NCBI GenBank assembly: GCA_000091205.1
Contig: AP006489.2
DNA from: Cyanidioschyzon merolae
Lineage: Eukaryota
Strand: one strand, 5' to 3'
DNA length: 64,000 bases
The notes under the pieces are model-generated. The model saw only the letters and a program-made list of their open reading frames with translations. It was not told the origin of the DNA and made no database searches. Position numbers and translations under genes: made by a program. The stretch's first letter is position 1, and each line of letters opens with the position of its first letter. Positions 3,001-45,945 of the stretch are shown here, one piece after another.

Positions 3001-3633
3001 ACAGTGCACGACAGCACGTTCTGCACGACGACCTGAACACCCCGGTCAGTATCCGAAAAACAACTTCACGTTTCCGGAACGTCCATTGGCTCTGTATTGA
3101 GCAAACGTTTCTAGTGATCAGGATGAACACAGAGTAGGCATCGTGCTGAAACACTGAACACTTTCAAAAAACAGTTAGTGTCTAGATGATAGGGCAATGG
3201 AATCCAGGAAAACTGTAGCGCCCTATACACGCACACTGGAAACAATGCCCCTGAACAATCACCCTTGTGCTCCATTATGGGATATCAAAGCGATCATTGC
3301 GAGTGATGCAGTGCTCCCCACGGAGTTGTCACAGCAAGCCTGTGGCGTGACTGCCAATGCCGTGCACGCACGCAGACACCACGTTGCAGGGCATTCGCGC
3401 ATGCATTGCAGCGCGCGCGCGCGCGATAGAGACGCCCTGGCAGCTCGATGGGCGACAAAAGTCGCGTCGACGCGTCACGAAGCGGTACTGCGACGCCTGC
3501 CTCCGCATCAAGAACTGGAGCACAGCATCGCGTTGCGTTGCACGACACTGTGTAGAGCGCAGAGCGGTTGCTGTGCAGCTAGCGTGCCTGTCGCTCCTGA
3601 CACTGACGCCCTGGGCTGCTTCAGCGTCTCCGT

Positions 3634-15660: not shown

Positions 15661-17734
15661 AGGGTGAATGCGTACCCATTCGGAGACGCCTTCCAGCCGT
15701 GTTCGACCGGCCGCCTGCTATCGGTTTCCGTTTTTCCAGGCACACCTCGAGCTTGAGAGGCTACCTCACAAAGTTAGATCACTTGAGCTCCTCGGGTATC
15801 GTCTTCGGCACCACACATTGTCTGATATTCGTAGCAGCGTAAAGTCTCGTTTCACGAACTCTATGGGTTTCTCGTTGCTGGTGGAACTCATCCGCGAAAG
15901 GATAGCTAAAATGCGTGCCGCTACAGCCTAGTTATCGTGTCGTCGGGCAAACACCTTGTCTCACTTGTCTCCCCTTTTACTTTTGCTGCCTCATCACTTG
16001 CTCTTCTTCGCTTGATGGTTAGTGAGATGCGGATTTATTTCGCTTGTTTCCGACGACCGGGGATGACTGTCCTCCGGGATCCTTGAATCTCACGCCCATA
16101 CCCTTTGCTTGGATTTTTTATTTCTTAGAAATGAACGCATTTCTGTATGCCCCTGTGTGAGGGCGTTCCCAGATGCACGATAGCTCGCACAAGAAAGACG
16201 ACATGTGCCCTGGGTTGTTAGCGTGCAGAACGCTCAAGCGATTCGCCCAGTGGAGCGATTATTAATTTCACAATAGAAAACATTTCTTATACGTGGTTGA
16301 AACATGCAGCGTACGGAGGATAGAGAAGCAGCTCTACTCCTGGGACAGATTCGACACAAGCTCGAACGCTAGGGGAATGGTGAAATACCACGCTCTCCAA
16401 CAGAAGGACGTTGCCAGATGTCAGGGAAAAGTCTTGTGTAATTCGAGCAAGTGGCTGATGCAGTTGTTCAGGCCTTCTCTACGAGCGAAACTGAGCCGCC
16501 AAATGAATCCACCGCAGCTAGAACAGATGGTGTCGTCGTCGTCCAGTTGGATCGCACATAAAACGGGCTCCATCTCCGAGAAAAAACATTCACGCTCCGA
16601 CCATTTCGTCCGAAGGAACTATGATCGAATGAAAAAACAAACCGACATCCCTGTGCTTCATAGCGATCGCGAAGTTCCAGGTACGCTGTTGATGCGTTTT
16701 TGGTAAACAATGGCCGTACATGAACTAAGACTTTTTTTCGACTGTATCCCAGTGTTTTTCGGGACCAAACGAACTAGATGTTGCGAAACAGAGACGCCCA
16801 TGATGGCTGCTGCGATCGTTGCTTTTGCTTTCCGTAAGGTAGTCAGCAGGTCGTTTTCCTACCCTTGACCGCAAGAAGTCTTGAATAATATCGGTATTCG
16901 GCGCAAAGCGCATCTGCTTGTTTCTTGCAGGGTTCGCCAACCACCTGAGTACTGTGGTATGACTGACACTGAGGATTCATGCGGCGCTCCTTATACAGTT
17001 CAGTAAAGAATCTATCCTACAGGGAATTCGTCCAGGAGGTATAGAGCGCATTGCATCCTGCCCTCGATCACCTGCTATCCACCGCAGCACAAGTGAAGCA
17101 AAACTGAGTTGTGAGACCTGAACAAGGTCGATCACCTGCAGCGGATTTCGTTCGTCCGACGCCTCTAAGATCGCATTGGTACGGGGACATGAACTTCGCG
17201 GCCATTGCTCGCCTGCGAACGGTATGATGCGTAGACCAAGTTCGTGTTCCAAGTCATGGTGATGGTCACGGTGATGCGTATCACAGAACGACCAGAAAGG
17301 GCCGGTGCGGCAGCCGCCGCCGCCGCCGACGACGACATCCGTCGGGAGACCCCTTCATGGCGTCAGTAGGTCTAGGCGGGACGACTCACGAGCGGAGCGA
17401 ATCCTAATAACTGGCTTTGCCTTGTTCGTAAAACGTGCGGGCATGAAATCTCGTATCTGAGGTTTTAATGAGCACGCCCCTGATTCTATGAAGGAAAAGC
17501 GGAACCGAATCGCGAGACTGAGCATCGCGGTCTGCCGCCGAGAGCATGCGACCGAGACAGCTTTCGTCCTGTAGACACTAGGCATCCACGTACACCGGAA
17601 AACAAACACGACTCCATTGGATGCAGTAACCAGTGCCTCGTTCACAGAAGCGTTTCGCGGTGCGCATCCATGCTATGCCGGCGTCGACGCTGAACGCGCA
17701 GCCTCCGTGCGCACTCCAACGTCGATAGCCATTT

Positions 17735-21994: not shown

Positions 21995-22111
21995 GCGCAC
22001 GCACGCATACGCACGCACGCATACGCACGCACGCATACGCACGCACGCATACGCACGCACGCATACGCACGCACGCATACGCACGCACGCATACGCACGC
22101 ACGCATACGCG
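21995..22111. repeat. 14-bp minisatellite (cgcacgcacgcata) x about 8, immediately upstream of DXR.
   Basis: Perfect tandem copies are read directly. They produce the [14 protein letters not shown] peptide repeats in the upstream part of the DXR ORF. Confidence 0.9.
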
Positions 22112-22225: not shown

Positions 22226-23713
22226 ATGAACGCTAAACCCGAACAGCTTCAAGCGCGAGGCGGTGCTTTGCTGACTCCTCGAAGCTCAACCGCGCCGGGT
22301 GCTTTCCTTGCGGCATCGGCTGGCGTGCGCCTCTTGGTTGGCGGGTGGACAACTCGTGGAGGCACCTGTCGTCAGCGCAGTACGCGTCGTACCCCGGCCC
22401 GATGGGTCTGCATGGACCAGGGTGCTGCACCCGTGGGCACGAGGAAGAGCATCCAGGCGCTGGAGAACGCGCTCCAACCTACGGCGTTCCACCGACGCGT
22501 CACCATTTTGGGAAGCACCGGGAGCATTGGAACGCAAACCCTGGATATTGTGCGCTCTTGTCCGGACAAGTTTTCTGTCGTAGCGTTGGCGGCGAACGGT
22601 TCAAACGTAGAGCTTCTCGCGGAGCAGACGCACGAGTTTTCGCCCGAACTTGTCGCTATACGTGATACTGCCCGCCTCGAGACCTATCGGGAGGCGCTGC
22701 GGCAGCGTGGCGTCCCGGAACCGCCGCACATTGTTGCTGGCGAAGACGGTGTCGTCGAGTGTGCGCGATACGGTGACGCAGATGTCGTTGTCACTGGGCT
22801 TGTTGGATGTGCGGGTCTCTTGCCCACAGTTGCTGCGATCAAGGCCCGAAAAGACATTGCGCTGGCGAACAAGGAAACACTGATCGCGGGCGGCCCCGTG
22901 GTCGTGCCCCTAGTTCACGAGTACGGCATTCATCTGACTCCAGCCGACTCAGAGCACTCTGCGTTGTTCCAGTGTCTTCAGGGTGCGCCAGATGGCGCGC
23001 TTCGGCGCATCATTCTCACGGCGTCTGGTGGTGCATTTCGCGACTGGGATGTTTCGCGCTTAGCGCATGTGACTGCTGCAGATGCGCTCAAGCATCCGAA
23101 CTGGAACATGGGTCCGAAAATCACTTGCGATTCGGCGACGCTCATGAACAAGGGTCTGGAGGTTATTGAAGCGCATTTTCTCTTTGGCATCGATTACGAC
23201 GCCATCGAAATTGTCATCCATCCCCAGTCGATCATTCATTCGGCAGTCGAGTTTCAGGATACGAGCGTTCTCGCTCAACTCGGATGGCCAGATATGCGTC
23301 TTCCACTGTTGTACGCGCTGTCCTGGCCTCATCGGCTTCGGATTGAGACGTTTCGCCCACTGGATCTCGTTCAAGTGGGAAGTCTAACTTTTCGCGCGCC
23401 TGACCACGACAAGTATCCATGCATGCTTCTCGCGTACGCTGCGGGACGCCGTGGCGGTACCATGCCGGCGGTGCTGAACGCGGCGAACGAGGTCGCGGTG
23501 GAGCTTTTCCTGCGTAACGAACTGGAGTTTATGGGGATTCCCGCGGTCATCGAGCGCACCATGCAGCGGCATGACACAAGCGACTGGAAACAAACACCTA
23601 CTTTGGATGATCTCATTGCTGCAGATGCTTGGGCGCGTCGCACGGCACGAGAGGAGGCCGCGAAGCGCCCGATCTACCCCGCCGGGGCTAACCTGGAGAC
23701 GCAAAAGACGTAG
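22226..23713 (+). CDS. DXR: 1-deoxy-D-xylulose 5-phosphate reductoisomerase (DXR/IspC, MEP pathway). The start is ambiguous: the ORF is open from 21800, through the minisatellite. ATG 22226 gives a roughly 60-aa presequence and ATG 22412 lies just upstream of the catalytic core.
   Basis: [141 protein letters not shown] are collinear with bacterial/plastid DXR. Confidence 0.9.
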
Positions 23714-26620
23714 GAGAGCACCACGCTCGACCAGCTCGCCGACGATCCCTGGCCTGAGACGCATCGGCGGGAACGCTGTAGTGGCGATGAGGTGAACGAC
23801 TGCAAATCTCGATCGCTGGCTACGCTGCGGGTACTGGTCGTTGCCCTCACGAGAACTCGGACCGGATCTTGGCTTGTTGATGATGGGCATACAATGCTAT
23901 TGGACAACGACGGGATGGCATTCACCCAGAGGCCTGTTGTCGTCAACATCTGTCTTGGCCGTGTTCAGGAAGGAGCAACGCTCGCGCTGCAGCAAGCGGG
24001 GGTGCCTCTACACAATAGAGCCGTATCTAAAGCAGGACAGCATCGCTATGTCAACGCGGTGTCTCTCGCTTATACGTAGCACTATCGAAGAATGGAGCAC
24101 CATGCTGTGCCATCGATTGCTCGGGAAAAACGTTCCCGATGTGTAGATACATGGCGCTCCAGCTTTCTTTTATCGCCGAATCGTACCTGACCAGTACATT
24201 GATCCAGGGGAGAATGCAGTCCCCTCTCCCATTCATGGTCACCTTTTTTTAATCGAGGGTGTTCGGAATTTCAGCACACTGTCCGTACTGAATACAAAAC
24301 CGTTTCCTTGAAAGCGCGCTCGACTTTAGCTGCCGGACGCTCCCGAAGCATGAGACAGATCCGGATGTTGATTGAGGCGTTCGGCTCTTGGTTCGGACAC
24401 TGCTTTTCCGCATCGGTGCAGCGGAGCCTGACCATAGAAAGCCCCTCAGCTTCCGATTGCCACGCCATGTGACTTCCAGCCAGCTTACCACGCCTCATCT
24501 CACGCATCCGGCTCCGTTTCACGCCCTTCTTCTATACCTGTTTCAGCGTGCACCCGTGCTCGTGATCCGTGCACGTCGTCGTCTTGAACGCATCAACGCG
24601 AATCGTACAGAATCGGTTCCTGAACTCGTTGAAGGCTCTCGTGTAAGGAGCAAGCGTGCCGTCCCGGCGTGGCACTGTACGTCCAGCACCAGAGGATACA
24701 ATTAAGCGATACGATTCGTCGGTAATATCCGTTCCCAACTCATTGACCAAGTTATCGAATGCAAGTTTCTTGCTTCTGTACAACAGTGACTCTAGGCTAG
24801 CAGAGCGCTCTCTCGTGTACGTTTGCCAAATATCGTCCGTGCGAGTTCTTCGGACGCCCAGAAACGCGCTAGAAAAGGCGCACGATACATTCGCTGCATG
24901 CTCGATACAGCGCACAGAGCGTCGAGGTAGGTGCTGATATTTCCCTCCATCATTCCACTTGTTCATATGCGTCTTGGCCTCGCTCATGGCGGACGATCGA
25001 TCGTGCCGGGCCCTGGAAAGTTTGAATAGCGTGAACTGCTTTCGTAGCGGGTGTTTGGCACCGTTCTCTTGATTTTAGGGGTGCGGCGGCGACGGTGGCT
25101 ACGATGTTCTAATAAGCGGGGTCCACGCTCTTTACGGACTGAAGCTCTCTTCGTCTACCCTGAATGATTGAAGACGAGTCTCGTTTGCCGGTTTGATACT
25201 TTTTGGCCCCGGTGCGGTAGGATTTTCGTGAATCGCCGGGATAGCGCCGCGACGCGGCAAACGACTCCGAGAAGCACAAGTGCAAACCTCTGACCCGACG
25301 ATCAGACCGAATTGCGTCTTCTGCACCGTGTATCAATTGTACTGTTGCACGCAAGCTTGATGAAAGAGTTCCGCAAGAATTTGGACGGTAGACAGTCCTG
25401 CGTCCCGAACTCCGAGGAAGAGCTGCTTGACGAGGCTCATCATGGCATGAGGAGCTAAGCAACTAAGCCTCGAGTCAGAAGCTACGGGATCCGTCATTCG
25501 CGTCCTGCATCCTGCATTTTGAAACATTCTCCATGTTTATTTTTCTGGATATGAGATCTTGACACTGCGTCCGGAATGACTCTACCGTTGGTTCCAGTGC
25601 CTGCTCGCCCCCGTCTTTGTCGATCTGTCTCGTTCTTGTCAGATAGAGTCTGCTCCATTTCTTTTTCTTGGCAAAGTGGCATGGATGGGTTCGCTAGACT
25701 CCACGTCCGTTTCTCCCTCGGGATACAGGCGCACTGGATGGATCCTGACACTGAAATCCATCCCCTCTTTGTGTGTACCACTCCTCACGCGCCGTTTCGT
25801 TGTCTTCTCCGATGCGAGCACAGCTGCGGACCGTGCGCACCGCTCCGCTGCCTCCCGCGAACGCGAAGAGAAGCGACACAGCACACCGGGGGCCGGCGAA
25901 GCCAGAGAGCAACGAATGGATGAACGGTTTCACCGATGCGAACGAGTGTCCCATTGATTTGAGAGGGTGAAAATAACGTTTGTCAACATCGAAGACGTCT
26001 TCGACTGGGTTGATCCATGGGCAATAGCACGATAAGGAGAGCAGCGCAACATGAATGTCGATTGTGCACTACGCAACCGTTCCGCATTGATCGAAAGCGA
26101 CGTTATCTAAGAACGGAACAGAAGAAGGCGGGAAGCTCAAGCTACGCTTCGTGTTTCTTGGATCGCTGAGCTACGAAAAGATCTGGTATGTATGTCGATT
26201 TGTAGGCGACCACACGATTGAATCGCTTCTAGTCCTGGTGGCCTCGTAACGGCCAATCGTACCTTGTTTGCGATCAGCGGCCCGCCAGTGTTTGAGTAGT
26301 CGTATTGAGGTCTACCGTTTTCGGTGCATACAGGCTCGGTGAATGCGACAAACATCCGTCTGTCCTGAGGTAAGCGTTCGTGCTTCAGTGCGACACCGAT
26401 TCTGAGCAGTTCTACAAGCGACACTTGTCATCGAAGCGCCTTGCTTTTTCTTTCCATCTGTGTCTCTTCATCACCGTTCGGATCTATATTATGCGAGCTT
26501 TATATTCTGTGGCTTTTCGACAGTATACCTAAAAGGACGCACCGCGTGCAATGGACTGACGAGCAGACAGTCACATGGGCAGTGTTTGGCGATTCTATCT
26601 TTGGGAGCACGACCTTCGGG

Positions 26621-27220
26621 CTATGCACGAACAGAAGCGTCATTCGTGCACCAGATGAGCATAGAGTGACTGACGCGTAAAAGCGATGCTCTTTTTCGTA
26701 GGCTGGTAATGACAGCATCCCAAATCTCAGCAACATTGCTTCGATCCACTGAATTCATTCCTTTTATTGAATACTTGCGAGAAAAACATACAAGAAGAAA
26801 TAGGGCTTGCTTTAGAGGGGTATTCCAGAGCGCATGGCCCCAGCTATAACGCCAGCGTTTCTCGATGTCGCCCTTGTGTCGATATCGCTGACCCGTTGCG
26901 TGCTGCCGGAGACAGACTGCTTGGAAAAAACGACCTCCATCGGTGCACATCTGCTTCATCCACGCAAAAATAAAATCGAACAGTTCCTCTGACCTACCTC
27001 GGACGTATGCGATGAAGCTTGGGTGCCTTTCCACTGTCAGCGACAAGAGTCCCCGTGGGCTCTTCTCTGAAGGATTCCTTTTTCGTTCGCTTGTCTCAGA
27101 CTCGAAATACTCTGGTCGTTTCTGTTCCGCAAGCTCCATCATCAGCAGTCGAAAGTCGTTGACGGCAGCGTGAATATCCCAAATTGGCAGCTTCAGGCTG
27201 TTTCTGACCATTTCGTGCAC
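26621..27220 (-). pseudogene. Longest member (199 aa) of a chain of short, frame-shifting minus-strand ORFs spanning about 24.0-28.5 kb in a lower-GC island. It may be an exon of an intron-containing or degenerate gene.
   Basis: Consecutive same-strand ORFs (24532..24987, 25109..25462, 26621..27220, 27268..27657, 27639..28055, 28113..28487) abut or overlap in different frames. No family was recognised and the local GC is clearly lower than in the flanking genes. Confidence 0.2.
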
Positions 27221-28755
27221 AGGCCAAAGCTGCGGTGGACTCTTCGCTTGCCGTGTTCATCTTCTTCCTACCAAGCCTCGATGTGCATTTCGCAGTGTTG
27301 ACACCTGGTGAGGTCAGATGTTCTCATGTGTCCGCCATCACTCGTCATCTGTGGACCGGACTGTGGCGCGTAAAGACCTGCTTCATCGCACGGCACATGC
27401 TCTTGAGTGATGGCGACGGCTCGATTCGATACCCTCTCGCTTTTGCACGCCTGTCGCCGTACCCTACGATTCCGGGCTTCTTCTCGACGATACCGTCGGC
27501 GAGTGCGCTGGCCGGCGCACAACCAAGCGCACGTCTTTCTATTTGATGGAGGATCTGTGAAATGCGATACTGTGCATGATGAAACAGGTCCCGGGAGGAA
27601 ATCCGGATTACCGAACAAGTCGAGATATGTTGATCCGTCTACACTCCTAGCGTGCAAAGCGGTGACGCACGCTCCACTGGAAGCAATTGCTTTGATGACT
27701 CAAGTCGGTGTCCACGACTGTTTTCTATGTAAACAGAAGAGAAGGGGCCTCTGAAAGCGTATCCCATGAACGGTGTCATGCAGCTGTCGAATACCGATTC
27801 TTCACTGAACACAGAGAGACAAGCGCTTGTCCCAAGAGCAAAATCGATTACTTGACGTGAAAAAGTTGGTGAGCTTTCGGCATAAGCTTCTAAACAAGTC
27901 GCCAGGGACGACGCCCAGTTCGTTGCTTCGTCAATCCAGTTTTGTTCGTTGCTGCGTCGACGACTCGCCTTGCAACAGAGATATCGAAAACTTGCAGAAT
28001 GCCTGGTTTGAGCATGCTGTACATAAGGAAAGCAGAAATATGGAGGCTTGCCCATACGTAGTGCTTCCTGAGATCAGTTATTTTCGCAATCGCGGATCGC
28101 AGGCTCCGCGATTCATCTCGATTCTCGTTGCGTCACGGATTCCAGCGGAAAAGAGCGGCAGAGGTTCCGCTCCAGAATGACGACGGCGAATCCTCCAGCT
28201 ATATATGAGTTCGTCAGCTCTAATTGATACAATTTGAACGTCAAGGCTGCACATTTGATAGAAAAGTTCAGAACCGCCATCAAAACGCAGAAACAGAGCA
28301 ACCGGCTCCGTTTTTCAGGTGCATCTGACAGCCAATCGTTGTGAGCGCAGTCAGCGGCGACATCATGGATTCCGTGAAGAGGCAACCGCTCCGCATTGGA
28401 CACGCTATCGGAGATACCTTTTCTTCCAAACGATCCCATACCTGTGGAATATCGGCGGGGTTGTTTAAGAAACCCAAGTGCTCGCATCTAAGCTCGCGCC
28501 ACGTCGAGCGCACGCGCTGCACCTATCCCGCGTTGCGTATGATGCCGCTTCCCGAGACGGCCCTGCAACGCGATCGTGGACAGAAACCAGACCCCGGAGT
28601 GTCAATAATCCAGGCGCTTGGAGTCAGCAACCGGGATGCGTCGATAAATCGTGCGATTCGAGCTAGCGCTACTGATACCGCTCCGCCGGCGTCGTCGTTT
28701 TCTCTCTATTTTCTAGTACGAACGCGATTGTGTTTGTGTTTGAGTAAATCGTGCT

Positions 28756-30414
28756 TCATGGCAGACGCTGCCGTCGAACTGCTCGCGGGAACTGCAGCGG
28801 CAAGCGATCAAGCGACACAAATAGACCACTGCGATTGGCGCCACTTGGGCTGTTTGGTGCCGCAGAACGCACCCGTCGCACACTCAGGCCCATGTACTTG
28901 AAGTAGGTAGCGCAACGAGCAGGCGGCAGACGCAGAGCCTCCGCCAAAGCATCGACGGGCTGGTCTTGAAAACCACTGCAGTGCAAGTACAGAACGAGGA
29001 TATGATGCAGCATGCGCTCTTTTTCCACTATTCTTTTGGTCTCGGTAGAATCTGCTTGAGTGAAAATCTCCAGCAGAAGCTTACCCAGCCAGGACGGCAG
29101 CCAGCGCAGCGGCTCGGGCACATCGGCGGTATCTCCCGACAGACCGTGCTCACGAGACGCCGGTACGCGTAATTGTCGTGGCCAGCGATGGTAGCACTCC
29201 AGCAGAATCCAAAGGTAGAGGTGCGTGCATCGCTGTAAAAGAGGGTTCGAACCTACAGAAGCTGTCGTAGATGGCAGCGCTTCAGCGGCAGCGCTGGCGG
29301 GCGGCTGTTCTAGCGAGGTTGCCGTCTCTGTATCTGCGGTCTTTCGGGAACTCGTAAACTGTTCCCTCAGACTTTTCGCGTATTTCATATCGCTTCCAAG
29401 TGATTCAAGTTCGGTGGCATTGCTCTTGTATGCACTGAAGAAGCGGCTCGGGAGGCAGCCACCCAGCAGGGGATACGCTGTTTCAGGTGTCGTCGCCTCC
29501 GAGTTGTACGGCGGTACCAACCGAACGCTCTCGGTGGTGGCCTCTCGGAGACTCGGTGGCGGAGCTTCTCTCGAGATAGCATCGCGTTTGCGTACGTGGT
29601 CTGATGGACCGCGCTCCACTACGTCGGTAACGTGCTGGTTCAAAGAGTCCCCAGCGTCGTCGTCTGTGGCGTCTCCCTGGACAGCTGCCTCTGCCGCTTG
29701 CACGTTCTCATTCGTTACGTGGCGCGCCAAAGAGAGGGCACGTGCGCGTTTCTGGCGCTTGCTCCCAAACGCTGCAATGAGTGCGTTTCGCGCCTCGTGT
29801 GCTTCCCGGGACGCCTGCGACTGGACAGCGAGCTCGTCGGGGAGCTGAGCGCCGTCCGCTGCTGCAGTCTCTCCGGAGTTCTGCTGAAGCGCCAATGAAG
29901 GCACTAAAGAGCTCACTGTATTCGATGAACCCGCTCGAAGCGTGGCAGTGCTGGCGATCGGCACAATTTGTAGCTCCTGAGCTGCAGCATCGACAAAAAT
30001 CAACACGTGCTGACCGCTGGTCGCCTTTCGCCCAGCACTGGCCTCGAGACGCGCCGTCCGCCAGGCCCCTGCCTCCCAGGGGCCATCGAGCTCAACCAGC
30101 GGACCTTCAAAGGACACAGTGCTGGTTTCCAGCTGGACCCTATTACGTTGATCGCGCTGCCAACGCAAGGGCCCCAGGGGGCAACGTGCCTCCGTGCAAC
30201 CGAGAAACCGGAGCAGAACCTTGCGCTGCGCTGCGTCCTGCACAACTCGTACACGCCAGCGCTTCTCTTCACTGTCCATGGTGACCAAAGGGTGTACTTG
30301 TTGCGACTCGTTGCAGTCACCGAGAGCCACAACAAAGCAGCGGTTCAAATGGACGGTGCCGAGGTGACCGATCGACCAGGAGCAGGGCACAGGGTGCCGC
30401 CTCTGTGATGCCAC
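28756..30414 (-). CDS. Hypothetical 552-aa protein. The N-terminal region has a weak, unverified resemblance to RNA polymerase I subunit A49/PAF53.
   Basis: Long uninterrupted ORF in a GC-rich, gene-like composition block. HVLIFVDAAAQELQIVPIA faintly resembles the A49/PAF53 dimerisation-domain segment. The C-terminal LHHILVLYLHCSGFQ...ATYFKYMGLSV looks globular. No decisive motif was found. Confidence 0.45.
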   Translation of the reverse strand: MASQRRHPVPCSWSIGHLGTVHLNRCFVVALGDCNESQQVHPLVTMDSEEKRWRVRVVQDAAQRKVLLRFLGCTEARCPLGPLRWQRDQRNRVQLETSTVSFEGPLVELDGPWEAGAWRTARLEASAGRKATSGQHVLIFVDAAAQELQIVPIASTATLRAGSSNTVSSLVPSLALQQNSGETAAADGAQLPDELAVQSQASREAHEARNALIAAFGSKRQKRARALSLARHVTNENVQAAEAAVQGDATDDDAGDSLNQHVTDVVERGPSDHVRKRDAISREAPPPSLREATTESVRLVPPYNSEATTPETAYPLLGGCLPSRFFSAYKSNATELESLGSDMKYAKSLREQFTSSRKTADTETATSLEQPPASAAAEALPSTTASVGSNPLLQRCTHLYLWILLECYHRWPRQLRVPASREHGLSGDTADVPEPLRWLPSWLGKLLLEIFTQADSTETKRIVEKERMLHHILVLYLHCSGFQDQPVDALAEALRLPPARCATYFKYMGLSVRRVRSAAPNSPSGANRSGLFVSLDRLPLQFPRAVRRQRLP

Positions 30415-31609
30415 CGCTGCGGTGTGCGTCGATACGAACCGATGATGATAGACCAGTTTTGTACATGTATGGATCTAAATATCAGGAATGCAATCAGAGG
30501 CGCTCATGGCAACGCGCGGCACCTGCTATGCAGCTTCGAGAAAGGCGATGTCAAGTCTCTGGTTTCCAAGCGCTCGTGTCAAACTGGGGAACCTGCTATG
30601 CAGCAACGAAAAAATACGTCAACTCTCCGGCTTTCTTGACCGAATCAGCGGTCGAAGATGCGTTTCATCGGGAGGAGAAAATGAGTCTTTAGGGTTAGAA
30701 GGGCAACACATATGCTCTGGTGTACGGAAGAGATGTACCGCTCGATGCTCCAACGGGGAGAGAACGGGCAACGAGCGGGAAGAAGTGATCCAAGGGGACG
30801 TTTGCGTTTCCAAGTTGAAGCTGAACTCTTTCTCCCGAGAACGTCATCGCGTACGAATAAAGTGCCTCGCCGCTTGTTTCTTCATCCTGATCAACTCACC
30901 GGAAATCGAGGCACACATCCTTGTGAACTTCTACATGCTGAGAACTCTCTCCCCGTCTCACGCGACCCTTGACCTAGTTCAAACGATTGTTTGTTTCCCG
31001 TCTGACAGGTACTGAAAGAATGTAGGTACGTGAAGGTCCGAAAATGGGCGAGCGAAGAGGCCACAAATACGCTCCCGTCCCCTGATTTTTTTCATTGACA
31101 AAACGTTTACTTAGGCCAGGGTTCGCCGATTATGCGCATTTTTCTTTTCTTACGTTTTTTTGTGTGTGCGTTTTTTTTCAGTGCGAGGTGAGGTATCCAT
31201 CAACCCCCTACATCTCCTGTCCCCTGATGGGAAGTTTTTCGCGCTTGCTGGATCGCCTGTACCGAGAGGAGCTGTAACGAACTCGAGAGGAACATCGGCT
31301 CGAGTTCCATGTCAAGTATTGGTGCATGCGTTCCGCTCTGACCCAAAAGAACCGAAGCGCAAACCGAGAGGCAAGAACGGTGCGCGTCAAGGAATCTGTA
31401 TTTTCTTCGAATGATGCAAATGCACCCGGAGCTTTCCATCACGAAGGCGGCGATAGAAACGACGCATATCCTAAGGAATTTTGGGTCACGTATCGCTCAT
31501 TACATCGAGCAGATGCATGGAGAGTAAACGATAAGCGTCTCCAAAGAGAAACAGAGATTGTCGGTGCCGCACCCGCTTGATCGTTGGTTAGTCTCGAGAT
31601 TCGTTTCCA

Positions 31610-31626
31610 CCCCCCCCCCCCCCCCC
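31610..31626. repeat. Poly(C) homopolymer of about 17 nt
   Basis: ccac + c x16 is read directly. It lies in a lower-GC, ORF-poor stretch. Confidence 0.85.
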
Positions 31627-34552
31627 GAGAGAAAGCAAAACCGAACATGTCCTTGGCGGCCGTGAGCGTGGAGGACAAGACGCATTCCCGAAGGCTTGTC
31701 TCTGAAGCATTCGTCGAAGACATCTTTGAGCCTTTCTCTGTATTACACACTGTTGGAAGCGCGTGTGAACGCTTCGAACACTTGTTGAGAATGCGGTGCA
31801 GAAGACAGAAGAGATGAACTCCGCCCCGAGACGTTCGCCCTCCGACCGAAGAAGCCTGGCTTCACAAATGGTCATATCTCTTGCAATTACTTGAGCGTCG
31901 TGAGCATCCAACGACGCCATGACATCGCGAAAAAGAATCACGACGAAACGCAATCAGGTGGAGAAATGCAGAGCAGGGCGTACGACGGAAACGTTGATAT
32001 CGAAGCTGCCGAAACTACAAACATTCCAATTGATTTCCGTTTTCTCCCGGATGCGTACGGTGCTAGCGTTTCATTGAGAGCGTCGAAGAATATCTCAGGG
32101 TAAATGGGAAACGATGAAAGCCTTCCGACTCTGAAAGATAACCAAAGACTTGTTGGCGTCTGGTCGGGTCTTCCCATACCTAGACAACTTTGTTGCCTCG
32201 ATTTCAGGGCGAAAGACGCGTCATCACAGCAGCAGAAGATACGTTCATGAGGCAACGTCCGTATACAGCGCGAGAAAGCATAAAAACAGAACCAACACAA
32301 GGGGGATGTGACTGCTCGTCTCTTCATTGGCGAGACGACGGACTCGGAAGCGTACAAAACTCATCTGCGAACATACTTGAGCGTGTTCCCCGAATGACTG
32401 AAACACATAACTCGTTCTGGGTTGCAGCGACTGCGATTCCTCCGTCACGTGCTCGAACAGAAAGCAACCCACGGGATTTGGACGCCCGTATGCTACTGAG
32501 TGACGAAGAGACGGTCATCGGGTGCGAGAACAGAGTGCGAGCGAGCATAGCGTCCGACCTCTCCGTCGCAAACGCGGTGCACTGACAGCGACAGATCAGA
32601 AGCTAAGGGAAATGCCGAATGTGTGTGTGTGTGTGACGAATATCGATGGTTCCCGGATGTCGACCAGGTGTTCCCGTTGCGCAGGTCGCTGCACGATTGT
32701 GAAAGCGATGCCGACGAAGTCCATGACCAGCAAAGAAACGAAAGAAAATGACAGGAGGTCGTATGGTACTCGAACTCACAAACTGCTGCACTGAATGCGT
32801 GTCAGATGCGAGGGCAGGAGAGTATTCGCCCACCCGAGGTACAACATGGAACTGTGAGGGCAACGAGTGCCGCAACATTCCGGAGATGTTGCGCATCAGC
32901 ACGAGAGGAGGTTAACAACCTGCACGGTTTCGCCGCGCGAGAGACAATGAAAAGCATAGTCCCCAGACGAAAAATCTCACCATCCTCCCAGACCAAAGCT
33001 CTCGAAGCGAAACAAACATTGCATGATCCTGGTTCTCGGATATAACGAGAATAATATTCTGGTACGGTCACAAGGAAGCAAGTGGGATGAAACGACTGTC
33101 CCGCAATGTTTACGCATGCCTGTACGGGATCAGCGAACTGCATCGATAAAGACGCCTTGTATAAGCGTTCAACATTATGCGCATGCTTTGTGCATGCTCT
33201 GAAACACAGTTCGTATCACGGCATACTCGTCGTCAGCGACATCCAAAATTCTAGTCTTTGGTATACGATGACACCTTCTGATGACTGATTCAGGGGCTGT
33301 TGTGGCCTCGGCGCCCGTCGCCTTCATGCTGCAACACCCAGCGCACAGGATTCCCCAGTCCGTATTCAGGTGCTTTCATCTACGGCCAGTGCTCTCTACG
33401 CTGAAACTCCTGATCGCCGACCGCAGCCTACACCCGGAACACCTGACCTATCGAGGCTGGAGCGGCTACGAGTGAATCCCAGCGATTGCTGACCAAGTTC
33501 CTACGTGTTCCTCAATCCAGCGATATACGTTACGTGCGAAGAAAAACTCGAGTCCAAACATGATGCGACCCACCTGAGAAAGCGGCATGTCGCCCGGGCT
33601 TGCACCCTCACGGGGACCAGCGTGTCCCCGATTTGTTTCGTGGCTTTCGCATGGGTTGCAGGAGGCGCGTACCCTCGGACCCGCCGTTTCCTAGAAGGAC
33701 GAGCTTGCGCTTTATAAGATGCGCACCGCTCGCTCGCATCCATACGACGGTAGCGGCTGACGTTTAACTGCTTGTCACGAGCATCTGCGGGACATTTCAG
33801 CTGGTGCAGAGGCTTCGACGCGCTTGTTCGGCGCAGGTGCTGTCTACGGATTGTAGGGGGCACTCGTCAGCCCATGAGACTGCAACGGCATTCGCAGGCG
33901 CCTTGCGTCACACTTTTCAAGTCTGGCCCCTGATATCGTCTTTAGCGATTGACTGGCGGGCAGGACGCTTCGCTAAGTGCAATACGTAGCTTGAAGGAAA
34001 CGCTTAGTGATGCTTTGAAACGCAGGCTTCGTCCGCTGTTGGTCACATACGTCGTTCCGTGGCTAGCTGCTTGGCTCGAGAATCTCTGCAGCGTTTCTGT
34101 AACCCGATATTGCAGAACGTTTATCTGTATCATCATTCCAGCGCCTGCGACAGGGGAATCAGTGCCCCCGCGATCGCGTGATTGCAGAGGGTATATTCGC
34201 ATATCTGCAAGGAGCAAAGCGGAAAGCTGGGTCATGCTTTCGTGTAGTGCCCTCTCCGCATCGATAGCTCAAGTGCCTACGCCAGTGACGCCAAAGTTGC
34301 TGACGGGACTGAGCACGCACGATTTGAACGCGAGTACCGGCGCCGACACTGAACAATGATATCTGAAAGGCCCAGCTTGCAGGGCGTACTGAAACGTCAA
34401 GGCACCTACACCGCCGAGCATCCGCTCGAGCAGGTGCATGCGTTGATATCCAGCGCATGCTGAACCAGAGCCATATGCGCGTCTTCGGTGCCGACGGTAG
34501 ATGGTCGGAGACTCCAATCTCACGGATGTAAACGATGATCAACTCATTGTCG

Positions 34553-35767
34553 TCAGCACGGTACCAGCCGCAACGAGGCGGGAACGCGGGCCACGTCAAT
34601 GTTCATTCGGTACGAAGGCTGTAGTAACGGATCGTTGTCGATCCGCTTGATCAGGTGATGAATCATGTCCGCTCTGAGATACTTGCGAACCAGGGCATCG
34701 ACGACGCGATTTTCAAGCCACGTATCAGGAGCGTGGCTCGGCTCGGTTTCCGCCATATCAATCTGTGGACTCGAGTCTGACGAATCTGGTGATAGGATCG
34801 AAGAAGATGACTGCGCGGATAGCCGAGGCAGGAGACGTGGCGTTTCGTGGACCTCACGAGGGCGCCAGTCTCTGTGTGATCGCTCGGTATCGAGCGCCGT
34901 CGGTTCCCGGTGCCATTTGCCATATCCATTAACCACACTGGACTGTAGCTCGTGTGCAAGTCGATCTAGTTCTGCTTTCAAGCGCTGCGATTGCATTGCT
35001 GCTGCTTGCAGAGCAACATTCGCACTCAGTTGCTTGCGCGCTGCTCTGAATCCATACGCGGAAGATTCCCTACACGTCGGCGAATACCGTCGCCTTGAAC
35101 CCGCTTTCGTCGTCACGGCTGCCGGACCCGGTGTCGGCCAGTCATGATCTATGGGGGTATCCGCGGGCTGCCTCGGGGAAATCGTGGAAATGCTCCCGTC
35201 TGAGAGCATCGTGTCGGGTGTCGCTCGTGACGGTGTTTGTCGCGGCTCTGCGGGGTGAGTTCGCTCCCCAGACCGCGCTTTGCGAGCAAGCCGCCTGGTT
35301 TCAATCACCGTTGGCGTGGAAGCAGTGCTCGGAAAAGATGTGGTGTCTGTTAGAACAAATGAATCACTGTCGAATAGACTACTAGCGAAACTCAAGTCAA
35401 CAGTGCTGAGCTCCAAATCAGCTGGTTCCGTCGACCGCGCTATTACTCTTTCCGTTTGTTGCGCAGGTCGGTAGCGAGACGCCCCGGCGCGTACGGGTTG
35501 GTGCTCCCGCTTACCGCTGGGAGAGGCACTTCGACTGATAGCATCCTCTTCCTCCTCATGTTCTTCCAAAATTCTTTCGATCTCTTCGCTTTCAATGTCC
35601 AAGTCCTCGAGGGACAGCTCCTCCTGTAACTGCCGTAACGTGTCCTCGTCCAACAAGCCTTCGCTTTCTGCGAACAACTCGGACTCTACTTCCGAGGCTG
35701 TGCTATCATCAGAGGCCAGTAACGCATCAAAGCTGCTAGAAGCGGACACGTCACCCAGCTCGGGCAT
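34553..35767 (-). CDS. Hypothetical 404-aa protein with a highly acidic, Ser-rich N-terminal half (probably disordered) and a conserved-looking C-terminal segment.
   Basis: Uninterrupted ORF. The N-terminus is D/E/S-rich (EEIERILEEHEEEEDA). The C-terminal RVVDALVRKYLRADMIHHLIKRIDNDPLLQPSYRMNIDVARVP looks structured. No family was recognised. Confidence 0.4.
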   Translation of the reverse strand: MPELGDVSASSSFDALLASDDSTASEVESELFAESEGLLDEDTLRQLQEELSLEDLDIESEEIERILEEHEEEEDAISRSASPSGKREHQPVRAGASRYRPAQQTERVIARSTEPADLELSTVDLSFASSLFDSDSFVLTDTTSFPSTASTPTVIETRRLARKARSGERTHPAEPRQTPSRATPDTMLSDGSISTISPRQPADTPIDHDWPTPGPAAVTTKAGSRRRYSPTCRESSAYGFRAARKQLSANVALQAAAMQSQRLKAELDRLAHELQSSVVNGYGKWHREPTALDTERSHRDWRPREVHETPRLLPRLSAQSSSSILSPDSSDSSPQIDMAETEPSHAPDTWLENRVVDALVRKYLRADMIHHLIKRIDNDPLLQPSYRMNIDVARVPASLRLVPC

Positions 35768-39381: not shown

Positions 39382-39557
39382 GAATGATGCTTCGGCTCAG
39401 TGTCTCGACGTTTCCATCAGTAGCTTGACTATGATCGAGTAGGAAGATGCTTGCCTCGTGTTTTTGAGCGCTATCCACACTGCACGCGTAGCACGGAGCA
39501 ATCCAAGCGTAATTGATCGTACGTATGGCAAGCGGTTTACGCTGCAGATTTCTGGGT

Positions 39558-39642
<85 letters not shown>

Positions 39643-39645
39643 CGT
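39558..39645. repeat. (ACGC)n microsatellite, about 21 units, in the divergent intergenic region between 38866..39381(-) and 39781..40803(+).
   Basis: A long perfect cacg/acgc run is read directly. It is flanked by a TG-rich tract at 39745-39770. Confidence 0.95.
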
Positions 39646-39780
39646 TCGCATGCGTGCCTATGGACACGTGTCCATTGGGGTATCCATGATCGTTTTTGGG
39701 GTAGCGCGCCTCGACCCATCGTATTGCACAGCTATCTTGACTGGGTGTGTGTGTGTGTGTCCGTGCATAGCGACCAAACA

Positions 39781-40803
39781 ATGCCGCCACCTGGCCCGAT
39801 CGCAGCACTCCGGGACCGCGTATCTTCCATTTTGTTTGATTTTAAGGATGCCACAGAGGTACTGGCCGAAGAGGAGGCGCACCTGGGTCGGCGCTCTGGC
39901 CAGGCGCTCTACAGAGCGCTCGTTGCACTTGAACAAGCCCAGGGGGCGTTTCTTCGCACAAGCGAACGAACACTGGCCTATTGTACCGCTTGGAGCGGTT
40001 TGGCTCGTGCGCTGCGCGCGCTTGCCGAACCCTTGTCGGCCGGTGACCTGGTACCACTCGCGTTTCGGGTTGAGCACGAGGAGCGTGTTGTCGCGCAGTT
40101 ACAAACTGGAGGTGCTTGCGGCGCAACTGCCGAGTCCATAGAGCGCACAGCGAACCGGTTGCGCAACCGGTTGCGCTCACTTCGGGGAGAACTGGACACC
40201 GTGGTCGTGCAGGAGTCGCTTTCGTCGCGGAAAGCACAGTACCGACGCGCGCGAGACAACTATCGCAAACAGCAGGATGAGGCGGCGTTGGAGGTCTGGC
40301 GTGAGGCCAGCCTCGAGTTGCAGACAGCCGCAGTGCGAGCGGTGCAGCGCTTCAGCGATGCTGTCGATGAGGTTGTTAGTATGGTCGCACGCTCCACTTA
40401 TCATATTGGACGCATGCTATCCGAAGAGTGGCGGGAGGCCGCCGCTGCCGTTGTTGGTCTGGACGAGGTTTTTGCAGAGGAAGCCTCTGAGGCAGCGGAT
40501 GCCGCGTTTGCACCGGTGTCTGCAGTGAGGCATGTCGAGGACACTACGAACGCGGATGCGCCAGTGGAAGCGCCGAAGGCGCCAGGGCAGTCGTCAGCGA
40601 CCGCTGCCGACGAGCGTCTCTCCGCCAGCGCGCCTGTTTCTGCATCCGTGCTGCCCAGGAGCAGCACCGGGCCTACCGGTGACGAGCCGGATACCGGGGC
40701 GGCTTTCACGCTTTACGACGAGCTCGATGCAACATTTGACGCTTATTCGAAGGAGGAACCACAAGAACCAGCATCATCATCATCATCATCACCGCAGCAA
40801 TGA
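39781..40803 (+). CDS. Hypothetical 340-aa protein that is Ala/Arg/Glu-rich and predicted helical/coiled-coil. The ORF track opens at 39556, but that start lies inside the (ACGC)n microsatellite (MRTHARTHAR...), so the ATG at 39781 (MPPPGP...) is preferred.
   Basis: Continuous ORF with periodic charged/hydrophobic pattern (LRNRLRSLRGELDTVVVQESL...). There is no recognisable enzyme motif. It ends in an acidic/Ser tail. Confidence 0.45.
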   Translation: MPPPGPIAALRDRVSSILFDFKDATEVLAEEEAHLGRRSGQALYRALVALEQAQGAFLRTSERTLAYCTAWSGLARALRALAEPLSAGDLVPLAFRVEHEERVVAQLQTGGACGATAESIERTANRLRNRLRSLRGELDTVVVQESLSSRKAQYRRARDNYRKQQDEAALEVWREASLELQTAAVRAVQRFSDAVDEVVSMVARSTYHIGRMLSEEWREAAAAVVGLDEVFAEEASEAADAAFAPVSAVRHVEDTTNADAPVEAPKAPGQSSATAADERLSASAPVSASVLPRSSTGPTGDEPDTGAAFTLYDELDATFDAYSKEEPQEPASSSSSSPQQ

Positions 40804-43534: not shown

Positions 43535-43912
43535 GAGTGCATCAACAAGTCCAGTTACGAAGTGCAGGTATGCCTGGAGACGCTGGCACTGAGGCAGGTC
43601 ATTGACCGACGTGAGCGTGCCGCCGCACCCGTCTTCGGCGACGACCGGTAAGCGAAACGCGTTGCTTTACGCTCGCGTTTTTCGGAGCTTTCCATTTTGA
43701 GAGGTACAGCCTCGAGATTCGAAGTGCAGCCATGAGGGCTTGTGGATTCATATGTGGATTATGGGATCTCGGCGGTCTATTCGGTGTGGCTCTTTCGAGT
43801 CTTTACCGTTGCTCTTCGTTACGTCACCGGTACCAGGATATGATTCGCGACGGCCTCGAAGAGTGGTTCATATAATGACCCACATCATCATGCAAATGAA
43901 ATGAACGTGCAT

Positions 43913-44614
43913 CTACGCGCCTCCTTTCCTTACACGCAGCATACTCCAATCATGCACGGTTTCAGTTTTCGAACGTTGTGGTTCAACGAACTCGTAGGCG
44001 TTGCAGTTTGCGTCGCTGGATCGACGAGCTGTGAAAACCTCGACAGGGTCGCTTGAGGACTTGTTCACAAACGCGCGCCGAAAGATCGCTGAAGCTGCCA
44101 CATCAGGTGATCGATTCCGTTCGAAACGCGAATCCCCCTGTCTCTGTGGCCATCGACGGATCGGCATTCCACTAGGGCATCGTACATCTCGTGGAGTATG
44201 CAACCGGAGGCTCACGACTCTTTTGGTTGCATGAGAAAGGGTCTTGGGCTTGCTCGGAGCGCCAGACATTGCAGCGATCGTTCCCAGTGGAGCGTGCGTC
44301 ACCGTTTTGCATGAACGTCGTGCAGAGAGATCGAGATTTCTCGACGTGTTTCCCAACCTGAATTTTTCTTCTGGCACGTGTTCCATCGCGGATACCATCG
44401 TGTTCCACAAACCTTTTACTGAATGGAGCAACGTGCGCTTGCATGTGCGGCGAGCAGCGTACTCGCCCCGTGAATCGCCCAGTAGAGGCTCGTGTCCGTA
44501 AGGTACGAAACCAGACCCGGAAACGGATGGGGGCATCGGAGGCAGGCCGCTGTACCAGTCCTGGGCATGTATCGACCGATAAAGCAAGCCATCTGCGGTA
44601 CCAAGACGGTCCAC
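43913..44614 (-). CDS. Hypothetical ORF (233 aa) with no recognisable family. It lies immediately before the 86-bp tandem repeat, and part of it may be UTR.
   Basis: ORF length only. Composition is intermediate and no motifs were found. Confidence 0.2.
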   Translation of the reverse strand: MDRLGTADGLLYRSIHAQDWYSGLPPMPPSVSGSGFVPYGHEPLLGDSRGEYAARRTCKRTLLHSVKGLWNTMVSAMEHVPEEKFRLGNTSRNLDLSARRSCKTVTHAPLGTIAAMSGAPSKPKTLSHATKRVVSLRLHTPRDVRCPSGMPIRRWPQRQGDSRFERNRSPDVAASAIFRRAFVNKSSSDPVEVFTARRSSDANCNAYEFVEPQRSKTETVHDWSMLRVRKGGA

Positions 44615-44706
44615 CTAGGTAGCGATCTGGTAGGCAGATTGGAATACCTGCACACAGTCAGGTGTCAATGCTGCGAAGCGTGCACCGAGACTGTACTCAA
44701 AAATGA

Positions 44707-44968
44707 TGAGAATCGCAATTGATGCACATTTCGCAACTTTCGCCTGAGGGTGTATGCGTCGACAACAGTCGGAAGCAACGAAATCGGGGCTTGGAAATCG
44801 CACTTGATGCACATTTCGCAACTTTCGCCTGAGGGTGTATGCGTCGACAACAGTCGGAAGCAACGAAGTCGGGGCTTGGAAATCGCAATTGATGCACATT
44901 TCGCAACTTTCGCCTGAGGGTGTATGCGTCGACAACAGTCGGAAGCAACGAAATCGGGGCTTGAACGC
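44707..44968. repeat. Tandem repeat of about 86 bp x 3 (unit ...gaaatcgcaattgatgcacatttcgcaactttcgcctgagggtgtatgcgtcgacaacagtcggaagcaacgaaatcggggcttg).
   Basis: Three near-identical copies with 1-2 substitutions each. The overlapping ORFs show repeated peptides PTVVDAYTLRRKLRNVHQ(L/V)RF. Confidence 0.9.
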
Positions 44969-45945
44969 AGCCATCAACATGTTTCGTCTGCTGACCACGG
45001 GGCCGGAGTGAAACGCGACACATTCGCGTATTGAACGCCAAAGCTAAGAGAGAGACGAAAAGAAAGCAGTCGAACGTATAGCCAGCCAAGTCTGGTGCTG
45101 AGGACAGTGACAGGAGACACATCCTATAAGCATGGACGCTCCAGTTAGCAACGTAGACCTGTTCCATTATACGCTGACAAGAATTTCACGCGATAACGAT
45201 GCCATCCTCAGAGCTGTATGCATGGATGCGCGCCCGTGTCTGCATGCCTGTGCATTCACTTGTTCGTTCGTGCAGACCGCATGTGCACGCGCGGATGACA
45301 AGCGGCCGTGCGTCCGTAGCGAATACGGTTCTGTATCGAGGTAGAGTGCGTCGACTGGCGCTGATCCAAAGCACGCTCACGGCTGGAGTACGTCGCAGTT
45401 CCACAGGCACGAAGAACGATATCCGAAGGTATGTGCTGTGTTGCCGCACACGAGCGCCGCAGCAGCACGTCGGTGGCAAGAAATCCAGCTGGCAGACCTG
45501 CAACGATGCGCCAAGTCGTTCGAGAATCCTAACTGGGCCCAGGGAGATGGGTCGCAGGCCTCGCTCTGGAGGCCAGACAGCCGGTCCCAACGGTAGGTAG
45601 GCAGGTATGTCGTCGATGCGCGGAGGATGCTCTTGGACGAGAAGATTGCCATTGGAGCCGAACAAACCGTGTCGTGGACAGCAACGCCAGAACGGCTTTT
45701 CAGATAGTTTGCGCATTTTACCGCACGTCACACATGATGAAACTGCAGAGCCGCAAGGCAGCACGCGGGATGTTCTCGTTGAGTTCTTTGATAGCGTCTG
45801 CGACGTACGTCACAGCGATATCGCGCTGTACCCATAAACATCTGGACGCTCAGCATTCGCGTGTAAGTCGCGCACCCAGAACGTGAACATAGCGCCCGGC
45901 GCCGTCAGTGCAAACCCCCATGAACCGATGTTGACGCAAGCGTGC

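Follow-up and report, generated by a model that had tools for sequence, protein, structure and literature searches.

Two decayed transposon copies of probable Tc1/mariner-Fanzor1 type in a gene-free block of Cyanidioschyzon merolae chromosome 7

Introduction

What fills the long stretch of DNA between the genes DXR and CMG151C on chromosome 7 of Cyanidioschyzon merolae, where no protein is annotated? We analysed a window of 64,000 nucleotides (nt) from this chromosome (contig AP006489.2; all coordinates refer to this window unless stated otherwise), in which the stretch in question, island 1 (24000-28500), lies between the convergent DXR and CMG151C. A sequence-only reading of the window had listed it as the first of three blocks with low guanine-plus-cytosine content (GC), each with runs of short open reading frames (ORFs) in shifting frames on one strand, and had proposed either degraded pseudogenes or mobile-element relics, or rare intron-rich genes. 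Here we report that island 1 is made of dispersed repeats holding decayed transposase and Fanzor genes, and that these repeats are absent from the same position in two sister lineages. We put the probability that island 1 consists of two dead Tc1/mariner-Fanzor1 transposon copies at roughly 0.85. Fanzor1 proteins are omega-RNA-guided DNA endonucleases, an activity demonstrated for SpuFz1 and others.

Repeats of this kind have a history in C. merolae. Nozaki et al. (2007) described 253 copies of a 3.2-kb interspersed element, amounting to about 5% of the genome and transcribed, with a truncated ORF weakly resembling WSV486 of white spot syndrome virus (WSSV). Fanzor1 was later defined by Bao and Jurka (2013), who described the C. 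merolae family CMe-1A (3169 bp, about 150 copies, no terminal inverted repeats, class unknown), one Fanzor1 in WSSV and Mariner-Fanzor1 elements in other organisms. Cho et al. (2023) traced the difference in genome size from Cyanidiococcus (16.5 versus 12 Mb) to an expansion of repeats in the spacers, with repeats at 25.9% versus 3.2%, and in the study of Mikulski et al. (2017) about half of the C. merolae repeats carried H3K27me3.

Results

Island 1 consists of two dispersed repeats

A sensitive blastn comparison within the window revealed that island 1 matches island 3 over almost its full length in inverted orientation, and that it also matches 1.1-3.4 kb and 43.6-45.2 kb (56-62% identity, E down to 1e-77). 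These matches resolve into two repeat families, which we call A and BC:

24072 to 26830, minus strand: BC element, read as a decayed Tc1/mariner-type element with transposase and Fanzor1 genes (56-57% DNA identity to 58166-61489 and 1101-3375, E 1e-52 to 1e-62)
26920 to 28310, minus strand: A element, read as a related Tc1/mariner-Fanzor element cut down to 1.4 kb by internal deletion (all pairs of copies share 55-59% DNA identity)
58166 to 62950, plus strand: island 3, with BC (58166-61489) followed by A (61500-62950)
1101 to 3375, plus strand: further BC copy, with a DDE relic at 1583-2066 and a Fanzor relic at 2763-3059
43600 to 45185, plus strand: solo A copy
7652-9030 of L021, outside the window: extra A copy, identified by repeat homology

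No further A or BC copies were found in the window with nhmmer profiles. In both islands A and BC are adjacent and in the same orientation, with the coding-strand order A-BC in island 1 and BC-A in island 3. Since none of the flanking genes are paralogous, the copies are not segmental duplications, and that possibility was rejected. All pairs of copies are separated by Kimura two-parameter distances of 0.65-0.69 in a star-like arrangement, with a ratio of transitions to transversions of about 1, the pattern of what may have been a single old burst. Separately, an 85-bp unit occurs three times (97% identity) at 44711-44963 inside the solo A copy, where the Fanzor C-terminal relic sits.

The BC element contains a Fanzor1 pseudogene

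Relatives of the island were sought by a full HMMER search of 1.84 billion cluster representatives with the concatenated island 1 ORFs as query. This search returned 72 matches, about 45 of them on the 151-amino-acid (aa) ORF (24532-24987, minus strand), which aligns to the C-terminal third of intact proteins of 576-727 aa. These intact Fanzor-like relatives share DFVVGxDPG, retain DPG...EFRTT...NRD and end in ...NRDLNAAINIRRC, the RuvC-III signature of TnpB and Fanzor. Curated models match them weakly (Pfam Cas12f1-like_TNB, E 0.002; NCBIfam guided_TnpB, E 2e-5; C-terminal and below cut-off), and a sequence-profile search of the PDB with this family returned nothing. An AlphaFold2 model of the intact relative P0173 (predicted local distance difference test score (pLDDT) 72.6, predicted template modelling score (pTM) 0.66) had SpuFz, GtFz and PpFz as its top seven Foldseek matches (E 9e-14 to 1e-11, template modelling score (TM) 0.5-0.7), followed by Cas12f and TnpB. 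P0173, an intact relative rather than the relic, is accordingly modelled with the Fanzor/TnpB fold (WED-REC-RuvC with an inserted Zn ribbon). In island 1, hmmsearch with a 647-position Fanzor profile located the following:

24304 to 25494, minus strand: Fanzor1 (TnpB-like) pseudogene, E 5.9e-32
25494-25342 and 25345-25187, minus strand: profile positions 67-164, frameshifted
25071-24535, minus strand: profile positions 402-576, E 5.9e-32
24453-24304, minus strand: profile positions 587-635
25183 to 25190, minus strand: breakpoint of an internal deletion of about 0.7 kb, with profile positions ~165-401, including the RuvC-I region, missing

In tblastn comparisons, the relic aligned with P0240, P0173 and the CMe-1 consensus at 33-37% identity over 236-268 aa (E 3e-30 to 8e-32), the match of 25071-24304 to the CMe-1 consensus protein reaching 37% identity and E 8e-32. 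Residue-level alignment revealed two in-frame stops and showed that the RuvC-III motif NRDxNAAINIRRC (NRDFNAAINIRRC) has become NQEPNASINIRIC, so that 'RD' now reads 'QE' and the catalytic Asp of RuvC-III is lost. The stretch deleted from island 1 is retained in island 3 (59772-60421), where it encodes Fanzor aa ~195-381. With RuvC-I deleted, QE in place of RD and two stops, the intact Fanzor motif D-X(125,275)-[TS][TS]-X-X-[C4 Zn finger]-X(5,50)-RD does not occur in island 1, and, judged by its residues, this copy is a pseudogene member of the family, not a functional one.

Both elements retain pieces of a DDE transposase

Upstream of the Fanzor1 relic on the same strand, the BC element contains a transposase relic:

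25928 to 26755, minus strand: DDE_3 (Tc1/mariner) transposase relic (tblastn against the transposases of L022 and L023, E 3e-11 and 9e-10)
26755-26657, 26385-26161, 26152-26084 and 26053-25928, minus strand: its segments, in frames 1, 0, 1 and 1, covering profile positions 2-277 of 302

The two elements used in this comparison, L022 (1-3560) and L023 (1-3738), come from the metagenome contigs ERZ27301260 and JGI 3300000575 'brine', have a GC of 45-50% and are apparently intact. Each encodes a DDE_3 transposase (272 and 302 aa, respectively; PF13358) and, 150 bp downstream on the same strand, a Fanzor1-like protein (727 and 699 aa). Both contigs stop 32-45 bp past the Fanzor stop codon, so that the ends of the elements, and any omega RNA encoded there, fall outside them. 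The BC nhmmer profile also matches L022 (E 1e-56) and L023 (E 6e-53).

For the A element, a consensus of four copies, including the one in L021, gave colinear matches to the DDE profile (E 9e-4, 1e-6 and 6e-6) and a match to positions 589-628 of the Fanzor profile (E 1.4e-5). This consensus keeps the transposase motifs 'DE..GY' and 'MDxxAFH' and, near its 3' end, has a Zn-ribbon-like CxxC...CxxC followed by NRDLHAAINI. Projected onto island 1, the relics lie as follows:

28252-28103, minus strand: helix-turn-helix
27992-27733 and 27700-27542, minus strand: DDE core
27235-27104, minus strand: Fanzor C-terminal Zn-ribbon/RuvC-III

Because the consensus matches both profiles, we read A as a 1.4-kb internal-deletion derivative of a related transposase-plus-Fanzor element. 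Once A was understood in this way, with transposase and Fanzor relics of its own, a circular permutation or tandem unit as the source of the A-BC and BC-A orders was rejected. The 138-aa ORF within A (27639-28055, minus strand) is called 'pectate lyase' in some IMG metagenome annotations; the name is spurious, as the ORF is a piece of the decayed transposase, in frame and with the DE...GY motif.

In island 3, profile searches recovered corresponding relics on the plus strand, for Fanzor at 59692-61298 in frames 1, 1, 2, 0, 2, 1 and 0 and for the DDE transposase at 58625-59063. This succession of frames explains the frame-shifting chain that had been described there.

The insertions are absent from sister lineages

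The syntenic locus was retrieved through CMG151C homologues from Cyanidiococcus yangmingshanensis (VWRR01000017.1; L019) and from a second, metagenomic Cyanidiales lineage (L020). Both keep the gene order ASF1 ... Obg - acyl-CoA synthetase - DXR - A49 - CMG152 - Rab ... NAPRT, and all coding genes align as DNA with the C. merolae window. A 35-kb stretch of C. merolae (11135-46195) is colinear with about 21 kb in these loci, order and orientation being fully conserved, and the excess length of C. merolae is found entirely in the spacers. The spacer between DXR and A49 measures 522-650 bp in the sister lineages versus 5042 bp in C. merolae, the one after NAPRT, where the solo A copy resides, about 0.2 kb versus 2.4 kb, and the one between A49 and CMG152 about 1.5-1.7 kb versus 4.27 kb. 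Neither the A nor the BC profile gave a significant match at the two loci (best E 0.75). In C. merolae, repeat homology ends about 350 bp from either gene, and the remainder thus approximates the ancestral spacer length:

23714 to 24071, no strand: residual original spacer, DXR 3' flank, without repeat homology; the homology between islands 1 and 3 begins at about 24072
28396 to 28755, no strand: residual original spacer, CMG151C 3' flank; repeat homology stops at about 28300-28395

Decay of the copies and polymorphism among strains

Between the copies in the window, mismatches lack codon periodicity, most gaps span 1-2 nt, and translated scores are equal in all six frames. An early conclusion from the periodicity and six-frame tests, that no gene relic was present, was overturned by the HMMER search against intact relatives; the lack of codon periodicity means neutral divergence after insertion and no more than that.

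Polymorphism was assessed in eighteen contigs from ~99%-identical Cyanidioschyzon strains. Segregating sites make up 1.2-1.4% of island 1, compared to 0.54% of DXR, 0.66% of CMG152C and 1.12% of the fast-evolving CMG151C, and a rough estimate for synonymous sites is 1.8%. In the longest ORF of island 1, no synonymous and eight non-synonymous differences were observed, and the ratio of non-synonymous to synonymous polymorphism (pN/pS) is near the neutral expectation.

Base composition and the chain of open reading frames

The low GC of island 1 was borne out, with 0.518 over 24000-28500 compared to 0.585 for ten neighbouring coding genes, as was the lack of a long ORF, the longest being 199 aa. 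The two other blocks singled out at the start, 30.4-34.5 and 58.4-62.6 kb, are also low in GC, but the total exceeds three, as 0.7-3.4, 15.7-17.8 and 43.6-45.2 kb belong with them; the spacer at 15.7-17.8 kb, with 0.519, resembles island 1. Low GC is a general trait of non-coding DNA here.

The minus strand of island 1 contains seven ORFs of 151, 117, 95, 199, 129, 138 and 124 aa, which abut or overlap in different frames. We compared this chain with 1000 second-order Markov simulations of island 1. The longest open frame averaged 168 codons on the plus strand and 196 on the minus strand in the simulations (observed, 125 and 211), and frames of at least 100 codons numbered 5.1 and 7.8 (observed, 7 and 7). 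There is no excess of ORFs in island 1 over the Markov expectation (all P > 0.2), and its plus strand is as ORF-rich as its minus strand. The observed/expected ratio of the dinucleotide TpA is 0.54-0.59 everywhere, and long open frames are common on both strands because of this genome-wide depletion. Searches of the single island 1 ORFs against Pfam, together with Rfam and tRNA scans, gave no match, and a tandem-repeat scan was uninformative. Frame arithmetic and motif comparison nevertheless placed in-frame relic pieces in six of the seven minus-strand ORFs of at least 95 aa (orf151, orf117, orf95, orf199, orf138 and the start of orf129), the sole ORF without one being orf124. The chain is therefore present, and homology traces it to decayed genes, but its number and lengths of ORFs lie within chance. 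ORF statistics alone could not reveal this origin in dead genes; homology did.

Other blocks of the window

Island 2 (30400-34500) showed no similarity to A or BC, to transposase or Fanzor proteins, to Pfam in six frames or to the rest of the window. Compared with the spacer in Cyanidiococcus, island 2 has an extra 2.7 kb. Adenine is in strong excess at 32-33 kb, and polymorphism in the region peaks in this island, at 2.4% segregating sites and 20 indel positions. The proposal of degraded pseudogenes or mobile-element relics thus holds for islands 1 and 3, whose frameshifted and stop-interrupted DDE transposase and Fanzor1 relics are dispersed and missing from the sister-lineage spacers; island 2 is a member of neither family.

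The spacer between Obg and acyl-CoA synthetase (2.4 kb versus 0.38 kb in Cyanidiococcus) holds a separate family:

15683 to 17030, minus strand: DDE relic (17030-16266), then CMe-1A fragments and a Fanzor C-terminus

Here 15684-16155, immediately downstream of the DDE relic, matches positions 857-967 and 2872-3082 of the CMe-1A consensus at 66-69% identity. This arrangement suggests that the CMe-1A family, listed as 'unclassified, non-autonomous', may derive from a mariner-like element.

Flanking genes and annotation

Ten long ORFs of the window have exact matches among the chromosome 7 proteins of C. merolae 10D. Those next to islands 1 and 2 are:

22226 to 23713, plus strand: DXR (CMG148C, a locus name taken from PMC12649381; BAM79654), exact protein match, Pfam DXP_reductoisom, 3' end toward island 1
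28756 to 30279, minus strand: CMG151C (BAM79655), RNA polymerase I A49-like, exact protein match, Pfam PF06870, 3' end toward island 1
34553-35767, minus strand: CMG152C (BAM79656), protein match

The accessions BAM79654, BAM79655 and BAM79656 are consecutive, so the GenBank annotation has no protein gene in either island 1 or island 2. The numbers CMG149 and CMG150 are unaccounted for in the annotation and may belong to loci inside island 1 that are not protein-coding. ORFs of island 1 occur in the protein collection solely as prokaryote-style gene calls on hot-spring metagenome contigs. Elsewhere in the window, a perfect short tandem array (CGCACGCACGCATA x8.2) lies at 21996-22110, immediately 5' of the annotated DXR start, and another, (CGCA)x21.5, at 39559-39644, at the beginning of the ORF 39556-40803.

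Discussion

Relation to known elements

The BC element of island 1 resembles CMe-1A in occurring in the same genome, in being about 3 kb long, dispersed, old and without recognisable terminal inverted repeats, and in its Fanzor1 ORF. It differs in that BC copies are about 57% identical to each other, while CMe-1A copies are about 80% identical to their consensus, and in that the 5' region, non-coding and 0.9 kb long in CMe-1A, is taken up by a DDE transposase relic in BC. On these comparisons A and BC appear to be separate, older relatives of CMe-1A, not CMe-1A itself. Metagenome contigs of Cyanidioschyzon hold an abundance of CMe-1-type Fanzor ORFs, which reach 752 aa and are 62-91% identical to the consensus, and none are annotated in the NCBI C. 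merolae proteome. Many of them carry a precomputed match to PF26935 (DUF8286), which is probably a Fanzor1 domain.

With regard to the WSV486-like repeat of Nozaki et al. (2007), the probable equivalent of CMe-1A, interspersion and size fit and the relic is a Fanzor1; CMe-1 matches the WSSV Fanzor SWv-1 (E 7e-22), which may be WSV486, and a direct tblastn of SWv-1 against the window found no match. The closest published architecture is that of PUl-1 (Pythium ultimum) and PGv-1 (Bao and Jurka, 2013), which have a transposase and then a Fanzor1 on one strand within 3.4-4.4 kb, exactly the layout of L022 and L023; these elements, however, own terminal inverted repeats of 24-33 bp and TA duplications, and none were recovered for the island 1 elements.

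SpuFz1 of Spizellomyces punctatus (PDB 8GKH and 9CEZ) is the best structural match of P0173 (E 9e-14, TM 0.59/0.69), and P0173 has in common with it a C-terminal NRDxNAAxNI RuvC-III motif. In contrast, sequence identity to SpuFz1 is only 13-16%, the C4 zinc finger in its canonical form seems to have degenerated in the clade of P0173, and the island 1 copy is a pseudogene. A likeness to bacterial TnpB (IS200/IS605, IS607) is seen in the RuvC-like core, in weak guided_TnpB and Cas12f1-like_TNB matches below cut-offs and in distant fold matches, although the Fanzor-like protein has twice the length of TnpB and its transposase partner is of the DDE type, not a Y1 or serine TnpA.

Weighing the interpretation

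Several observations weigh against two dead Tc1/mariner-Fanzor1 copies. The DDE segments of island 1 are individually weak (hmmsearch E 0.13 to 3.6e-7, the best being 26053-25928), the relics in A are significant only in the four-copy consensus, and the intact relatives sit on short metagenome contigs. Neither terminal inverted repeats nor TA target-site duplications were recovered in island 1, at the aligned copy ends or in L022 and L023, a failure that is uninformative at such decay and with contigs ending near the ORF; the Tc1/mariner assignment consequently has two supports, the transposase relic and the gene layout of the intact relatives. The 3169-bp CMe-1A consensus DNA found no match in island 1 by sensitive blastn (its sole match in the window being 15684-16155), and identity with the published family is therefore at the superfamily level only. 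What was modelled with a Fanzor fold is a relative of the relic, at about 35% identity, and not the relic itself. Finally, island 1 is less polymorphic than island 2 (1.3% versus 2.4% segregating sites; 1 versus 20 indel positions), and some constraint on island 1 is possible.

This last difference would also be expected of an unannotated intron-rich or otherwise functional gene on the minus strand, such as a domesticated Fanzor or transposase, and the same-strand ORF chain, the ORF lengths kept in about 10-12 strain variants and the roughly 250 genes added by a 2026 re-annotation with diploid-phase RNA-seq could be cited in its favour. The relics argue strongly in the opposite direction, given their in-frame stops, frameshifting indels of 1-2 nt, a 0.7-kb deletion that includes RuvC-I and the lost Asp of RuvC-III. 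Together with the lack of codon periodicity, the near-neutral pN/pS among strains (0 synonymous and 8 non-synonymous differences in the longest ORF), the absence of the block at the syntenic position in two sister lineages and the presence of only about 27 introns in C. merolae, they make such a gene highly improbable, and the proposal of intron-rich genes is not supported. Even less credible is the notion that island 1 is unique, featureless intergenic DNA with ORFs due purely to chance. ORF number and length within the Markov expectation, single ORFs without Pfam, Rfam or tRNA matches and copies without coding constraint are what it predicts, but it cannot accommodate a dispersed sequence that recurs at three or more paralogous loci of the window (E to 1e-77), DDE relics together with a Fanzor relic at E 6e-32, or the in-frame relics in six of the seven minus-strand ORFs.

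Centromeres of C. merolae are 2-3 kb long, occur once per chromosome, lack a consensus sequence and have a GC of about 48.4% compared to 55% genome-wide, and a gene-free, GC-poor block such as island 1 could in principle be, or overlap, that of chromosome 7. We regard this as very unlikely, as at least six comparable low-GC blocks occur in 64 kb, the GC of island 1 is 51.8% rather than 48%, and its content is fully accounted for by transposon relics. The A-BC, BC-A and solo-A arrangements, as well as the RepeatModeler classification of 12.7% 'LTR elements' in Cho et al. (2023), might instead bring to mind a long terminal repeat (LTR) retrotransposon in which A would be the LTR and BC the internal region. 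Yet no element has a copy of A at each of its two ends, the relics in BC are of DDE_3 and Fanzor rather than gag/pol, A too holds transposase and Fanzor relics, A and BC lie 5.5 kb apart in L021, and Nozaki et al. (2007) found no LTR elements, which leaves this reading with almost nothing to commend it.

A model for the origin of island 1

Taking island 1 as two dead Tc1/mariner-Fanzor1 copies, about 4.3 kb of transposon DNA would have been inserted into an original spacer of about 0.6 kb as two elements in the same orientation, with the coding strand minus. The near-full-length element (26.83-24.07 kb) would once have held a DDE_3 transposase gene with a Fanzor1 gene about 150 bp downstream of it, while A (28.3-26.9 kb) would be a non-autonomous derivative that kept the N-terminal two-thirds of the transposase and the Fanzor C-terminus. 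The living elements presumably moved by cut-and-paste transposition through the DDE transposase, with Fanzor1 as cargo. By extension from SpuFz1 and others, this cargo would have been an omega-RNA-guided nuclease, and, if TnpB is a guide, it probably helped the element to be retained or to home. One old burst, after the Cyanidioschyzon lineage had split from Cyanidiococcus, may have amplified A and BC alike, with subsequent neutral decay of about 0.33 substitutions per site per copy. Decaying copies would drift toward non-coding composition, hence the lower GC, and decay together with the genome-wide TpA depletion would yield the run of frame-shifting ORFs of 60-200 aa. At present, island 1 is most likely inert spacer.

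Implications

An odd-looking block thus turns out to be ordinary, namely dead transposons in a genome already known for repeat-inflated spacers; with repeats at 13-26% of the genome and Fanzor-related repeats published in 2007 and 2013, the expectation that it would stand out against a compact background was misplaced. The locus also carries a warning: when algal metagenome contigs go through prokaryote-style gene calling, relics of this kind emerge as 'hypothetical proteins' and, once, as a 'pectate lyase'. More tentatively, and with the odds somewhat against it, A and BC could be undescribed Tc1/mariner-Fanzor1 families, the Fanzor repeats of C. merolae could all stem from autonomous mariner-like elements, and one ancient burst of these, rather than 'LTR elements', could lie behind much of the 4.5-Mb spacer expansion over Cyanidiococcus.

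For the Fanzor family, the intact relatives in environmental assemblies, each with a transposase and a Fanzor of about 700 aa, are candidates for testing as genome-editing nucleases. For C. merolae, the transposase relics would supply the class, Tc1/mariner, that was left open in the 2013 description, and island 1 provides a putative link between the old 'white-spot-virus-like repeat' of the genome paper and Fanzor, a eukaryotic RNA-guided nuclease.

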